Part shown: positions 8,697 through 17,121 of the stretch, one piece after another
Numbering within the stretch: position 1 is the first letter of the stretch
How the letters are laid out: each line of letters starts with the position of its first letter
Virus record (IMG/VR): IMGVR_UViG_2663762603_000001
Origin: a virus
Taxonomy: Duplodnaviria > Heunggongvirae > Uroviricota > Caudoviricetes
Strand: one strand, 5' to 3'
DNA: 49,809 nucleotides
Program-made: the position numbers and the translations under genes
Notes under the pieces: generated by a model
Databases searched by the model: none
What the model was told of the DNA's origin: nothing
What the model saw: the letters and a program-made list of their open reading frames with translations, nothing else

Positions 8697-8732
8697 ACAC
8701 ACCTCCAGCTTCATTGAAAAGGATTATTAGCT

Positions 8733-9632
8733 ATGATTGATCCACTTATTAGAAACTTACAGAGTGATATTGCACTACTCCAGCTTTATATCGCGCAACG
8801 CAAACAGGCAGGCTTTCATGACATGGAAAGAATAATTGAGTCATTGACCATCTTTATGTTTCGCGCGCTGAAAATGGGTGAACTGGTAAACATGAATCAG
8901 ATTAAAGTTAATTTTCCCGCCATTGATTTAGCTGATAATAAAAACATGATAGCAGTTCAAGTTACTACGAATGCAAGTCCAGCAAAAATTAAAAAAACTA
9001 TCGAATCTTTTGAGGAAACAAATGAAATAGGAGAGAGTCTGAAAGATAAATACTCTACTTTATATATTTTTGGTTTTTGTAAAGCCTCAAGATACCTAAC
9101 TCCAAGTTATTGTAAAATAATCGACCCCAGCTATTTCGTGAATGAACTTTGCGATAAAGCAGATGAAGATATGGTCCAGGATATGATTGACGCCATTCGA
9201 CGCCATCATGATTATACATCATTACATCCATGGAGTGATAAAGATTCACTCGAAATTATACTCAATATTATTAATCGCAATGCAATAAAACATCGGATGA
9301 GTTGCGAAGGCAGTCTGTCTGATATGCTCACTGGTTTAAAAGAAATTAATGAAGTAATTACAAAAGGAACAATTCAACGTAAGCAACGTTCAAAATCGAT
9401 ATCTGACTTCAAAGATCAAAGCATGGTGAAATTTATGAGAGGTGTAATGGATGATTTGTCTGTTATTCAAGCCATAGTGAACAAATCTAAAGTTAACCAA
9501 GGTGATATGGTTTATATAAGCCATGAAGATATGATTAATATTGATAAATTAAAAGCTAAAATAGCAAGTGATTCATCAGAGATTGCAAGGCTAAATAATA
9601 TTGATATAACACTAAATGTTGTTGATTTATAA
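8733..9632 (+). CDS. SMEK-domain-like protein (candidate defence/abortive-infection protein)
   Basis: 299-aa ORF with AAGGA SD; N-terminal segment …NFPAIDLADNKNMIAVQVTT… resembles recalled SMEK-domain proteins; low-GC island. Confidence 0.6.
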   Translation: MIDPLIRNLQSDIALLQLYIAQRKQAGFHDMERIIESLTIFMFRALKMGELVNMNQIKVNFPAIDLADNKNMIAVQVTTNASPAKIKKTIESFEETNEIGESLKDKYSTLYIFGFCKASRYLTPSYCKIIDPSYFVNELCDKADEDMVQDMIDAIRRHHDYTSLHPWSDKDSLEIILNIINRNAIKHRMSCEGSLSDMLTGLKEINEVITKGTIQRKQRSKSISDFKDQSMVKFMRGVMDDLSVIQAIVNKSKVNQGDMVYISHEDMINIDKLKAKIASDSSEIARLNNIDITLNVVDL

Positions 9633-9946
9633 TTGTCGATTTAGCAAAACAGAGAATGCTTTGAAAGTTTCACCGAGAAATATTTATTGTGAACCTCCTT
9701 ATTGTTTATCGACTTTTACTCTCCGCTCATTGCAGTACTGTCGGAGAAGGCTACTATGTACAAGAAGCAGCTAACATAAGCGAGCATCACTATTGATATT
9801 AGGAAGAGTATATAAAAACTTCATGCTGAACCTTACAAAAGTAGATAAACCGGCAATGGCCTAAGTGGCAGGGTCATGTTGATCCGGCACTGCCGAGCTA
9901 ATAATTAACAAGCAAATCACTCTTTCTAATAATTTGTTGAAATAAA

Positions 9947-10606
9947 CTAAATATGTATATGTTTACCAACAACCACATATGAACTACCTGCTTTGCTCCA
10001 TGATTTTATTATTTCTAAATTATTATCTGAGCATATTTTACTTACAGTATCCACATCTAATAAACCATAGTAGAAAGCATTACGAGAGTTTTGGTATATA
10101 TACCCATGCAAATGTTTAATACCGCTCTCGTACCTCTTGAAATAAGAACTTTTGTATTGATTGACAATCAGTGCTTCACCATCACTCTTTAATAATTCTC
10201 TAATCGCACTGAGGACTTTGTGAATTGTGGATTCACATGGAATTGCGGAAAGCACGTTTGCGCAAAGTATGAAATCATAATGATTTGTTATTTTATCTAT
10301 ATTTTCATAAGAAACAATATTAGCATTCTTATAGTTATTTATCACGTAATCTGGAATCGTGGTTTGTACACCTCTGATAATTTGCACTCTTTCTAGTTGT
10401 CTTCTGGAATCTAAAAATGTCACAGTTTCAAATTTATTTACTAATTGTTCTGAATATCTAAGTTTTCCACATCCAAAATCAAGGGCATTGCCATTTTTAT
10501 TAGTGCTTTCAATCTGTTTACAGAGATAGTTAGATGGCATAGTGTGCGGTTTCGCTGCATTTTCTGAACGTATGTTTATTCCATTTATTTTGTAATTCAA
10601 AATCAA
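9947..10606 (-). CDS. class I SAM-dependent methyltransferase (not a DPPY/NPPY DNA MTase)
   Basis: 219-aa ORF; motif I LDFGCGKLRY, post-I VTFLDS, DFILCANVL; 6-bp gap from upstream membrane-protein gene. Confidence 0.7.
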   Translation of the reverse strand: MILNYKINGINIRSENAAKPHTMPSNYLCKQIESTNKNGNALDFGCGKLRYSEQLVNKFETVTFLDSRRQLERVQIIRGVQTTIPDYVINNYKNANIVSYENIDKITNHYDFILCANVLSAIPCESTIHKVLSAIRELLKSDGEALIVNQYKSSYFKRYESGIKHLHGYIYQNSRNAFYYGLLDVDTVSKICSDNNLEIIKSWSKAGSSYVVVGKHIHI

Positions 10607-10612
10607 CCTCGT

Positions 10613-11320
10613 TTAAAAAATATTGTTATTGTTAAAGAATTCTTTTATTTTGCTATCAGGTATTTGTCTTACTTGGCTTTCTGTTCTTGGTTTAACTGAT
10701 GCTATGAAAATAAGGAAGTCAAATGCGACAAGAGAAATAATCCACAACCAAAGATTAATTAAAGAGCCAGTAACAGAGAATATATTTGTTAATTTGGCGA
10801 TACTTATTATTAAAATAGTAACAAATGCGATTACTGTATGTTCAAAGAAAACCCAAAAGTAATAAACTTTGTTCCAGAAAAGTTCAACGTAATGTTTGTC
10901 TTTTAACTCTTTAACTTCTGGGTAATACAGTTTACTCATTACCTTGTGAGATTCATCAGTAGTTAATTTTCTCGTAACGCCTGCAATTTTTGCTAATGGT
11001 TTAATAATTAAATGACTATCCCACATCTTCCTTATTCCAATAATTTTTGCTACATTATTATGTAGATCTAAAGCTCCACTAATTACTGACCAAAAAACTG
11101 AAGATGCAATTGGTAATATGCCAAAGGTTAATATCCATTTAATAAATTCCTCGTAGTCTTTAACGGGGGGGATATACTTGGCATTAATGCCAACCAATGG
11201 CATGTAGCCATAAATGACTAATGATAGGTAAAATATAAATGTAGTAATAAAAGTCGCCTTATGGAGCATAGGCAACATTTCATTATAACTCTTTGGTGGT
11301 TCTAACATTTTACTCTCCAA
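10613..11320 (-). CDS. integral membrane protein (about 4 TM helices), unknown function
   Basis: 235-aa ORF with four long hydrophobic segments; first gene of two-gene operon with the methyltransferase. Confidence 0.65.
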   Translation of the reverse strand: MESKMLEPPKSYNEMLPMLHKATFITTFIFYLSLVIYGYMPLVGINAKYIPPVKDYEEFIKWILTFGILPIASSVFWSVISGALDLHNNVAKIIGIRKMWDSHLIIKPLAKIAGVTRKLTTDESHKVMSKLYYPEVKELKDKHYVELFWNKVYYFWVFFEHTVIAFVTILIISIAKLTNIFSVTGSLINLWLWIISLVAFDFLIFIASVKPRTESQVRQIPDSKIKEFFNNNNIF

Positions 11321-11598
11321 ACATTCAAAAAAAAGCTAATCTTCTATAATAACGAAATTCAGCTGGCACAATTAAAGATTAATTGCCACCAATTTCTTGA
11401 TTTTATAATTTTATCTAAATGTTTTTGATTAATCTAGTCCTAAAAGAAACCTACTGCATAAATATTTATGCTGATGACCCACTCCCTGTTCGTTAACACA
11501 TAGCAACGTTAGTAATGCATCCTAAGTGATCAATATTTTTGCTAGCTTCATCTGCTCGCTCAAAGGGAACTATAATGTTGGCTTGCGTGTGACTTGGC

Positions 11599-11835
11599 AT
11601 GTTTAAAGAAGTGCTGGTGGTGACTGGTTGCTGTTTTCCATTTCCACAGAACAAAATCATAGAAACTATACCCAGTAGTTGTATTGAATCACTGACGAGA
11701 CAGCCTCATATTTATCAGGACTGGTGTACGTCCAATACAGGAGGTTGTGGTGCTGGTTCTCAAATGTGCGCTGGCTATTGCTGCTGTAATGGCAATTTAT
11801 TGTCTTGCTGTTGTTCTTATGGATCACCTTTCTGA
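11599..11835 (+). CDS. possible small Cys/Gly-rich peptide (uncertain gene)
   Basis: 78-aa ORF ending GGCGAGSQMCAGYCCCNGNLLSCCCSYG; weak SD; divergent from membrane/MTase operon. Confidence 0.2.
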   Translation: MFKEVLVVTGCCFPFPQNKIIETIPSSCIESLTRQPHIYQDWCTSNTGGCGAGSQMCAGYCCCNGNLLSCCCSYGSPF

Positions 11836-12050
11836 TTGATTTCATATTGGCGAGGTAACGGTAGTTAAGTAGAATTGCTGCGGGTGCTTGAGGCTATCTG
11901 CCTCGGGCATCAACACCAAAGGCAGATAGAGAAAAGCCCCAGTTAACATTACGCGTCCGGCAAGACGCTTAACATTAATCTGAGGCCATATCTATGCTCT
12001 ACACACGTAGGTTAGCCTCTTACGTGCCGAAAGGCAAGGAGAAGCAGGCT

Positions 12051-15846: not shown

Positions 15847-16896
15847 ATGCTTAATACTGTAAAAATATCCAGTTGTGAGTTAATCAACGCCGACTGCCTG
15901 GAATTTATCCGGTCGTTACCCGAAAATTCTGTTGACCTGATAGTCACGGACCCGCCGTACTTTAAAGTGAAGCCTGAGGGCTGGGATAACCAGTGGAAGG
16001 GCGACGATGATTACCTGAAGTGGCTGGACCAGTGTCTGGCGCAGTTCTGGCGGGTGCTGAAACCTGCCGGAAGTCTTTACCTGTTCTGTGGTCATCGCCT
16101 GGCATCTGATATCGAAATCATGATGCGTGAACGCTTCAGTGTGCTGAACCATATTATCTGGGCGAAGCCGTCCGGACGCTGGAACGGATGCAACAAGGAA
16201 AGCCTGCGGGCGTATTTCCCCGCCACAGAGCGCATTCTGTTCGCGGAACATTATCAGGGGCCGTATCGTCCGAAAGATGCCGGGTATGCGGCGAAGGGCA
16301 GTGCACTGAAACAGCATGTGATGGCCCCGCTGATTTCTTACTTTCGTGATGCGCGCGCGGCCCTGGGGATAACGGCAAAACAGATTGCAGATGCCACAGG
16401 AAAGAAAAACATGGTGTCGCACTGGTTCAGTGCCAGTCAGTGGCAGCTACCGAACGAAAGCGATTATCTGAAATTACAGTCGCTGTTTGCCCGGGTGGCA
16501 GAAGAGAAACATCAGCGCGGTGAACTGGAAAAGCCCCACCACCAGCTGGTGGATACGTATACGTCACTGAACCGGCAGTATGTGGAGCTGCAGAGTGAAT
16601 ATAAGCATCTGCGGCGGTATTTTGGTGTGACGGCGCAGGTGCCGTACACGGATGTGTGGACACATAAACCGGTGCAGTTCTATCCCGGGAAACATCCGTG
16701 CGAAAAACCGGCAGAAATGCTGCAGCAGATAATCAGCGCAAGCAGTCGTCCGGGTGACCTGGTTGCAGATTTTTTTATGGGCTCAGGTTCAACGGTAAAA
16801 GCGGCACTGGCGCTCGGGCGTCGTGCGATTGGCGTTGAGCTGGAGACCGGACGTTTTGAGCAGACAGTCAGGGAAGTTCAGGATTTAATCGTTTGA
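15847..16896 (+). CDS. orphan N6-adenine DNA methyltransferase (DPPY motif)
   Basis: 349 aa; VTDPPY near N-terminus, FxGxG SAM motif (DFFMGSGST) near C-terminus; no adjacent restriction endonuclease. Confidence 0.85.
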   Translation: MLNTVKISSCELINADCLEFIRSLPENSVDLIVTDPPYFKVKPEGWDNQWKGDDDYLKWLDQCLAQFWRVLKPAGSLYLFCGHRLASDIEIMMRERFSVLNHIIWAKPSGRWNGCNKESLRAYFPATERILFAEHYQGPYRPKDAGYAAKGSALKQHVMAPLISYFRDARAALGITAKQIADATGKKNMVSHWFSASQWQLPNESDYLKLQSLFARVAEEKHQRGELEKPHHQLVDTYTSLNRQYVELQSEYKHLRRYFGVTAQVPYTDVWTHKPVQFYPGKHPCEKPAEMLQQIISASSRPGDLVADFFMGSGSTVKAALALGRRAIGVELETGRFEQTVREVQDLIV

Positions 16897-16945
16897 AACG
16901 GATGAGATTGCAGAATTAATTACGCACCATTATTATTCTGCTCCC

Positions 16946-17021
16946 GGCCCTTTAGCTCAGTGGTGAGAGCGAGCGACTCATAATCGCCAGGTCGCTGGTT
17001 CAAATCCAGCAAGGGCCACCA
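16946..17021 (+). tRNA. ileZ: tRNA-Ile2 (anticodon CAU, ileX/ileZ-like)
   Basis: 76 nt with 7-bp acceptor stem GGCCCTT/AAGGGCC, anticodon loop CTCATAA, GGTTCAAATCC T-arm, CCA end; near-identical to recalled E. coli ileX. Confidence 0.85.
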
Positions 17022-17030
17022 TATCACATA

Positions 17031-17107
17031 CCACCATTAGCTCATCGGGATAGAGCGCCAGCCTTCGAAGCTGGTTGCGCGGGGTTCGAGTTCTCGATGG
17101 CGGTCCA
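17031..17107 (+). tRNA. tRNA-Arg (anticodon UCG as read)
   Basis: cloverleaf with D-stem GCTC/GAGC, anticodon stem CCAGC/GCTGG, loop CTTCGAA, T-loop TTCGAGT, CCA end; one acceptor mismatch and G-U pairs in T-stem. Confidence 0.65.
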
Positions 17108-17121
17108 TTTATCGGTATTCT

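Follow-up and report, generated by a model that had tools for sequence, protein, structure and literature searches.

The 49,809-nucleotide window of the virus record IMGVR_UViG_2663762603_000001 (Caudoviricetes) carries, at positions 9947–11320, two open reading frames (ORFs) on the minus strand, one encoding a protein with four transmembrane (TM) segments and the other a class I S-adenosylmethionine (SAM)-dependent methyltransferase. A first-pass annotation had singled out this opposite-strand pair as a possible defence, immunity or modification module, and both ORFs were confirmed at these positions. On the basis of homology, they are assigned to one operon, a divergent allele of the ymfE–ymfD locus of the Escherichia coli K-12 prophage e14, of which ymfE has just been described as a phage defence gene and renamed Kunado. 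The best explanation of the data, to which we give a probability of roughly 60%, is a Kunado-type exclusion operon in which the two proteins work together and the methyltransferase modifies a substrate other than DNA. The vague annotation of a hypothetical protein plus a methyltransferase is thereby turned into a sharp question, namely what a non-DNA methyltransferase does in membrane-based phage exclusion.

One source calls a homologue of the methyltransferase ymfD, and a comparison with the e14 region of K-12 MG1655 followed. The membrane protein shared 60% identity with e14 YmfE over 232 amino acids (aa) (full length, E 1e-108) and the methyltransferase 68% identity with YmfD (full length, E 2e-113), and the two pairs were alike in gene order, strand and near-zero spacing. 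Each gene was matched in 434 of 5426 complete E. coli genomes, with identical identity bands for the two genes; the equal counts and bands, compared as totals and not genome by genome, point to both genes being in the same 434 genomes. The matches comprised the window allele (≥99% identity, 146 genomes), an allele at 80–90% identity (5 genomes, examples at 86% and 88%) and the K-12 e14 allele (approximately 69% DNA identity, 283 genomes). Within this newly named defence family, the window allele is the second that is common in E. coli; approximately 150 complete genomes carry it, inside a prophage other than e14.

A full-text literature search on ymfD and ymfE returned a single functional report, the Kunado preprint of September 2026 (bioRxiv 10.64898/2026.09.05.749240). 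There, deletion of hns in BW25113 uncovered a defence that mapped to e14, and a Keio screen of e14 deletions gave only two hits, lit (T4) and the previously uncharacterised ymfE (T5-like phages). Deletion of ymfE restored the infectivity of T5-like phages in the Δhns strain, and cloned ymfE protected a strain without all nine cryptic prophages (bioRxiv 10.64898/2026.09.05.749240). The protection covered phages using different receptors and adsorption was not blocked, and the authors proposed that YmfE acts in superinfection exclusion by preventing the injection of DNA. The words ‘ymfD’ and ‘methyltransferase’ are absent from the main text of the preprint (bioRxiv 10.64898/2026.09.05.749240). 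In a separate K-12 time course, neither ymfD nor ymfE was induced by the SOS response (PMC11002266). By analogy with the K-12 homologue, a defence role for the window allele appears likely, and the earlier suggestion of a defence module gained support from this phenotype as well as from the Hachiman, Lamassu, Olokun and type III restriction-modification (R-M) systems that neighbour homologous pairs.

The two genes were found together far beyond E. coli. Homologous methyltransferases at 42–47% identity in Vibrio cholerae, Pseudomonas and Microbulbifer each had a protein of 209–232 aa without a Pfam match directly upstream, and these upstream proteins were YmfE homologues (23–41% identity, BLAST). 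In a methyltransferase-seeded scan using one genome per species (32 loci, 31 spanning the whole methyltransferase), an adjacent YmfE homologue on the same strand was present in 31 of 31 loci, which according to their record titles came from Gammaproteobacteria, Alphaproteobacteria (Bradyrhizobium), Planctomycetota, Acidobacteriota, Gemmatimonadota (Gemmatimonadales), Dormibacterota and Acidimicrobiia. Seeding with YmfE placed the methyltransferase directly downstream in all 28 IMG/VR contigs, and a metagenome scan seeded with four sequences of a distant YmfE clade (24 loci, 22 with room for a neighbour) showed the methyltransferase adjoining YmfE, in either order, in 21 of the 22 informative loci. 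The exception (L092, 222–2450) holds an insertion sequence (IS) transposase in place of most of the methyltransferase, of which a 40-residue C-terminal remnant abuts the intact membrane gene. Overall, adjacency was observed in 80 of 81 informative loci from at least seven phyla.

Among 52 non-identical pairs, the gene order was inverted in nine and the pairwise identities of the two proteins correlated (r = 0.94), with the membrane protein diverging faster than the methyltransferase (mean identity 33% vs 44%). The genes of the distant loci overlapped by up to approximately 23 nucleotides (nt) or were separated by up to approximately 15 nt, with a single exception of approximately 470 nt, located in an uncultured Solibacteraceae metagenome-assembled genome (MAG; L032, 4588–6654). 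In the enterobacterial alleles, the ratios of nonsynonymous to synonymous substitution rates (dN/dS) were 0.04–0.27 for both genes, values that identify both as being under purifying selection. The conserved unit is the gene pair and not ymfE alone, and the homology and pairing are held as nearly certain. Conservation of the methyltransferase equals or exceeds that of the membrane protein over the whole range from enterobacterial prophages to Planctomycetota and Acidobacteriota. This near-obligate linkage across many phyla is new in the searchable literature, and the published single-gene picture of Kunado may be incomplete.

The linkage bears directly on the alternative that the system consists of nothing but the membrane protein, with the methyltransferase hitch-hiking in the cassette as a passenger. 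Such a reading draws on the reported sufficiency of cloned ymfE and the absence of ymfD from the listed hits (bioRxiv 10.64898/2026.09.05.749240), on a ymfD knock-out without a growth defect (PMC12096079) and on a neutral ymfD point mutation (PMC6828540). It fails to explain why the genes adjoin in 80 of 81 informative loci from at least seven phyla, occur in both orders and can overlap in their reading frames, or why the methyltransferase is under purifying selection, and no other neighbouring family recurred in more than three of 140 neighbour proteins. We consider a passenger role unlikely.

The methyltransferase contains the motif LDFGCGKLRY, as the first-pass annotation had reported, and scored above the Pfam cut-offs for Methyltransf_12 and Methyltransf_23. 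Its AlphaFold2 model (predicted local distance difference test (pLDDT) score 89.6) begins with a beta-hairpin followed by a flexible loop bearing an invariant NAAKP motif, and the SAM-motif residues were invariant in the homologue alignment. The protein is predicted to be a Rossmann-fold enzyme with intact SAM-binding motifs, competent to bind SAM. The earlier observation that DPPY/NPPY motifs are lacking was borne out, since a PP dipeptide occurs nowhere in the 217 residues. A Pfam search gave no match to N6_N4_Mtase, DNA_methylase or MethyltransfD12, and neither an extra domain nor a target-recognition domain was present. In NCBIfam no equivalog was reached, the TehB, BioC, OvoA-C and TrmB models scoring 12–33 bits against cut-offs of 132–303 (BioC 17.8 vs 185; TrmB 12.3 vs 132), and UbiG, UbiE and Rlm/Rsm gave no match; the label ‘benzoquinol methylase’, attached to homologues in some sources, is a generic name. 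The structure search revealed no close solved relative, and the structural neighbours, at 10–21% identity, were mostly small-molecule methyltransferases and a few tRNA enzymes. Judged on its sequence, the enzyme is neither a DNA methyltransferase nor a member of any housekeeping family. The first-pass annotation had named a housekeeping methyltransferase with an unlinked membrane protein as the outcome that would speak against it; what was found is an enzyme outside all equivalogs, without a close solved relative and almost universally adjacent to its membrane partner.

These features also bear on the idea that the enzyme marks nucleic acid of the prophage or the host, as an orphan or R-M-like methyltransferase of DNA (or RNA). 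The basic character of the family (median isoelectric point 9.1) would be in line with this, as would the tRNA methyltransferases METTL6, Trm9 and CmoA among the fold neighbours and the only PADLOC match, a weak domain-level hit to the mad2 methyltransferase domain (E 1e-4). As the 217 residues contain neither a (D/N/S)PP(Y/F/W) motif nor a target-recognition domain, Pfam gives no DNA-methylase match, no nuclease partner is conserved and K-12 ymfD is reported as not solely responsible for N6-methyladenosine in mRNA (PMC12096079), a nucleic-acid substrate is highly improbable.

The arrangement of an integral membrane protein gene adjoining a small class I SAM methyltransferase gene is shared with TehA–TehB tellurite resistance, which raises the alternative that the pair detoxifies, or confers resistance to, a toxic small molecule and excludes phages only incidentally. 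The methyltransferase passed the Pfam TehB cut-off weakly (24.4 vs 20.4 bits), and its best structural neighbours are small-molecule methyltransferases. The NCBIfam TehB equivalogs, on the other hand, were missed approximately ten-fold (28–29 bits vs cut-offs of 218 and 303), the 4-TM partner is unrelated to TehA and without a detectable family match, and phage-defence systems and mobile elements, not stress genes, are what recurs around the pair. There is very little chance that detoxification is the primary function.

The membrane protein had been described as a 4-TM protein of 235 aa. The four segments were recovered by hydropathy (residues ~21–39, 59–77, 159–177 and 188–206) and in an all-helical AlphaFold2 model (pLDDT 87.5, predicted template modelling score 0.81), while the length was revised to 231 aa. 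Model and hydropathy together place TM1 at ~17–39, followed by a short low-confidence loop, predicted to be periplasmic, and TM2 at ~59–79. Between TM2 and TM3 lies a helical domain of ~80 residues, predicted to be cytoplasmic, with three helices at 82–133; a long helix (138–174) then continues into TM3, and TM4 (~185–206) is followed by an amphipathic C-terminal helix. The lysine plus arginine counts favour a cytoplasmic location of both the central domain and the C-terminus. No family match was obtained in Pfam, NCBIfam or PADLOC (2023 database), the PHROG search gave only a non-significant match (E 0.05), and the BFVD viral structures displayed no similarity in sequence or fold (best E 1.4).

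An exhaustive profile search retrieved only 224 cluster representatives of the YmfE family among 1.84 billion; the family is rare yet widely spread. In all 17 close family members 35 positions were invariant, and across the whole family the N-terminal Tyr, H83, R93, Y129, H139, W152 and E156 were invariant or nearly so. The conserved residues lie in the cytoplasmic loop domain and on or close to the ends of TM2 and TM3 that face the cytoplasm, positions at which a soluble partner or a membrane-proximal ligand could possibly bind. One family representative (P0298, 395 aa) has ~190 extra C-terminal residues without a match to the methyltransferase profile, which may constitute another fusion partner.

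The exclusion operon proposed here, ymfE–ymfD, is AT-rich cargo, borne as an island by the Rac/Qin-like lambdoid prophage beside ompW. The 4-TM protein would be the effector, a Kunado-type exclusion factor in the inner membrane which, going by the report on the K-12 homologue, may stop T5-like siphophages after adsorption, probably at genome entry. The methyltransferase would be an active, SAM-binding cytoplasmic partner, probably docked on the conserved cytoplasmic face of the membrane protein, a physical coupling that is weakly supported. The methyl acceptor would be something other than DNA, such as the 4-TM partner, a different protein, or a lipid or small molecule close to the membrane, any one of which is a doubtful candidate when taken singly, and methylation might tune, reset or widen the phage block. 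That the methyltransferase has a required or modulatory role is an even bet. More tentatively, and at odds short of even, Kunado could be a two-component system of many phyla, composed of a non-DNA SAM methyltransferase and a 4-TM partner at the inner membrane, in which methylation of the membrane protein, of an incoming phage ejection protein or of lipid would control the entry of phage genomes. In that case, an antiviral mechanism would include a methylation whose target is not nucleic acid, and the description of Kunado as one gene would fall short.

Several observations weigh against the proposed exclusion operon. ymfE alone is described as sufficient in a host without e14, and hence without ymfD, and ymfD was not among the hits of the e14 screen (bioRxiv 10.64898/2026.09.05.749240), so that the methyltransferase looks dispensable for the sole phenotype tested. 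The notion of a membrane-coupled methyltransferase, put forward in the first-pass annotation, accordingly holds as a description of the genetics and not as a mechanism, since ymfE alone apparently suffices against T5-like phages. The preprint, moreover, has not undergone peer review, and the protein it deals with is a homologue at 60% identity (bioRxiv 10.64898/2026.09.05.749240). Structure and profile searches gave no substrate for the methyltransferase, the structure searches gave no informative relative of the membrane protein, and no true ymfE–ymfD fusion was present among 308 collected proteins. Finally, the membrane gene was found in none of 50,697 sequenced phage genomes. Despite this absence it is common in bacterial prophage regions, and a YmfE homologue was carried by only three plasmids.

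An apparent YmfE–YmfD fusion of 471 aa, encountered at two Bradyrhizobium loci (L036, 3861–5276; L037, 3534–4949), was rejected after inspection as a frameshifted ymfE. Both loci share the same frameshift, and TM3, TM4 and the tail continue in the other frame, ending at the methyltransferase start; the frameshifted gene is a pseudogene or an assembly error.

Broken copies of the membrane gene are relevant to a further alternative, an abortive-infection or toxin–regulator pair in which the membrane protein would be a potentially toxic, membrane-disrupting effector and the methyltransferase would sense infection or restrain the effector. An insertion of ~1.4 kb splits the membrane gene in two IMG/VR prophage contigs (L071, 3534–5555; L075, 3478–5384), that of L071 matching IS3-family elements, and the methyltransferase is intact in both. 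In the complete genome NZ_CP127265.1 (H50), the membrane gene matches only partly, in two places, and in the Bradyrhizobium loci it is frameshifted beside an intact methyltransferase. This pattern would suit a harmful effector, as would the H-NS silencing of the K-12 locus, which was framed as control of costly immunity genes (bioRxiv 10.64898/2026.09.05.749240). Against it stand the tolerance of ymfE on pBR322 without ymfD in a prophage-free strain (bioRxiv 10.64898/2026.09.05.749240) and the fact that decay strikes the methyltransferase too (L092, possibly L028), and an abortive-infection pair is judged improbable.

The organization of the two genes fits an operon. The ymfE-like (Kunado-like) inner-membrane protein gene spans 10613–11308 on the minus strand (231 aa), and its most likely start is the ATG at 11308, which has a GGAG 5 nt upstream and is the start used in RefSeq and in the homologues. 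The ymfD-like methyltransferase gene spans 9947–10600 on the same strand (217 aa), most likely from the TTG at 10600, with a GAGG 6 nt upstream. RefSeq WP_001139852.1 begins instead at the ATG at 10540 (197 aa), whereby ~20 conserved N-terminal residues including the invariant NAAKP motif are lost. The TTG start regains an N-terminal block (Y3, N14, A16, K17 and P18) that was invariant in 33 homologues down to 40% identity. Because of the GAGG site and the restored block, TTG 10600 is the better start, and the correction returns to the enzyme its most conserved N-terminal motif, which the RefSeq start removes.

With both starts corrected, the intergenic gap amounts to 12 nt (10601–10612) and not the 6 bp given earlier. 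This spacer contains the GAGG ribosome-binding site of the methyltransferase, which suggests that the two ORFs are co-transcribed and translationally coupled. Upstream of ymfE, an AT-rich region (11322–11474, minus strand), presumed to hold the operon promoter and leader, was the only flank conserved in divergent enterobacterial alleles (72–80% identity, blastn and alignment). A consensus promoter scan gave nothing above chance upstream of the pair, and a terminator scan was likewise at chance level.

Compared with Kunado and YmfD of K-12 e14, the window pair is alike in its full-length homology and in being AT-rich prophage cargo beside a defence-type gene, namely Lit in e14 and a SMEK protein in the window. 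It differs in its ~69% DNA identity and in its location, mid-prophage in a lambdoid phage as opposed to the integrase end of e14. In addition, Kunado is presented in the preprint as one gene, whereas the conserved unit in the present data comprises two.

T4 Imm, HK97 gp15 and P22 SieA are prophage superinfection-exclusion membrane proteins that block DNA entry. YmfE recalls them as a small, prophage-encoded inner-membrane protein with a putative post-adsorption action, and to our knowledge none of the three has a conserved enzymatic partner. Unlike these proteins, the YmfE family is not confined to prophages and extends to chromosomal defence islands of several phyla. The post-adsorption mode is the one proposed for YmfE in K-12 (bioRxiv 10.64898/2026.09.05.749240). 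A purely functional analogy can be drawn to methyl-accepting chemoreceptors and CheR, in which a membrane protein with a helical cytoplasmic domain is combined with a soluble SAM methyltransferase. It serves as a model for the purely hypothetical idea that the methyltransferase modifies its membrane partner; the comparison revealed no homology and no methylation-site motif.

The pair resides in a low-GC island (8700–11900; 33.7% GC compared to 50.3% for the whole window) between prophage replication genes and hokD, and the membrane-protein and methyltransferase genes themselves have 30.6% and 31.7% GC. An identical locus is present in strain Ecol_AZ155, in a lambdoid Rac/Qin-like prophage integrated beside ompW, where the island is flanked by replication-region genes (YdaT-family, DUF977) on one side and hokD/rem on the other. 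RefSeq annotates three island genes in this strain, encoding a SMEK domain protein, a class I SAM-dependent methyltransferase and a hypothetical protein. The best-matching E. coli genomes carried the island at 100% identity, and ≥80% of it was present in 151 of 5426 complete E. coli genomes.

The convergent SMEK-like gene noted in the first-pass annotation was recovered as a SMEK_N-domain gene at 8733–9632 on the plus strand (Pfam SMEK_N E 1.6e-22, NCBIfam E 4.9e-31), and it may be a separate defence gene. The N-terminus of its product also matches the PADLOC model Aga_REase-PNTD1-PNTD2 (E 1e-20). The gene often accompanies the pair in enterobacterial prophages, being its neighbour in 22 of 28 viral contigs as well as in strain ECO21, and in Salmonella (L042–L044) a GT4-conflict glycosyltransferase gene and an integrase gene come after it. 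It is absent beside the pair in K-12 e14, in the Yersinia loci and in all distant loci checked; for this reason it was rejected as a system component and is regarded as a frequent neighbour. The divergent Cys-rich ORF of the earlier description exists (11599–11835, 78 aa, with a C-terminal run of CC and CCC) and is without a RefSeq annotation. It was found only in copies of the identical window allele, and its candidacy as a system component is unsupported.

Elsewhere, the pair was found directly beside Hachiman (HamA/HamB) in Pseudomonas sp. PICF141 and one further locus, beside Lamassu LmuB in P. simiae, Olokun OloA/OloB in Microbulbifer, type III R-M Mod/Res in an Acidimicrobiia MAG and Lit in E. 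coli K-12 e14. In V. cholerae it adjoins toxin–antitoxin cassettes in an integron-like cassette region, in Yersinia it is located at the integrase end of a P2/186-like prophage, and integrases, resolvases or transposases lie near it at various loci. Pfam and PADLOC scans of 140 flanking proteins revealed no third conserved gene, no family being present in more than three of them.

Three contigs of 2.4–3 kb (L009, L010 and L011) carry the pair with a methyltransferase 86–100% identical to that of the window in assemblies labelled Candidatus Scatousia, Haemophilus sp. and Streptomyces sp., and appear to be contaminants of enterobacterial origin. Farther along the prophage that holds the window pair, at approximately 15850–17110 of the window (L001, 16348–17608), a DNA methyltransferase gene is followed by tRNA-Ile and tRNA-Arg genes, and these in turn by an IraM anti-adapter gene and a SASA-family carbohydrate esterase gene, cargo that is unrelated to the ymfE–ymfD pair.

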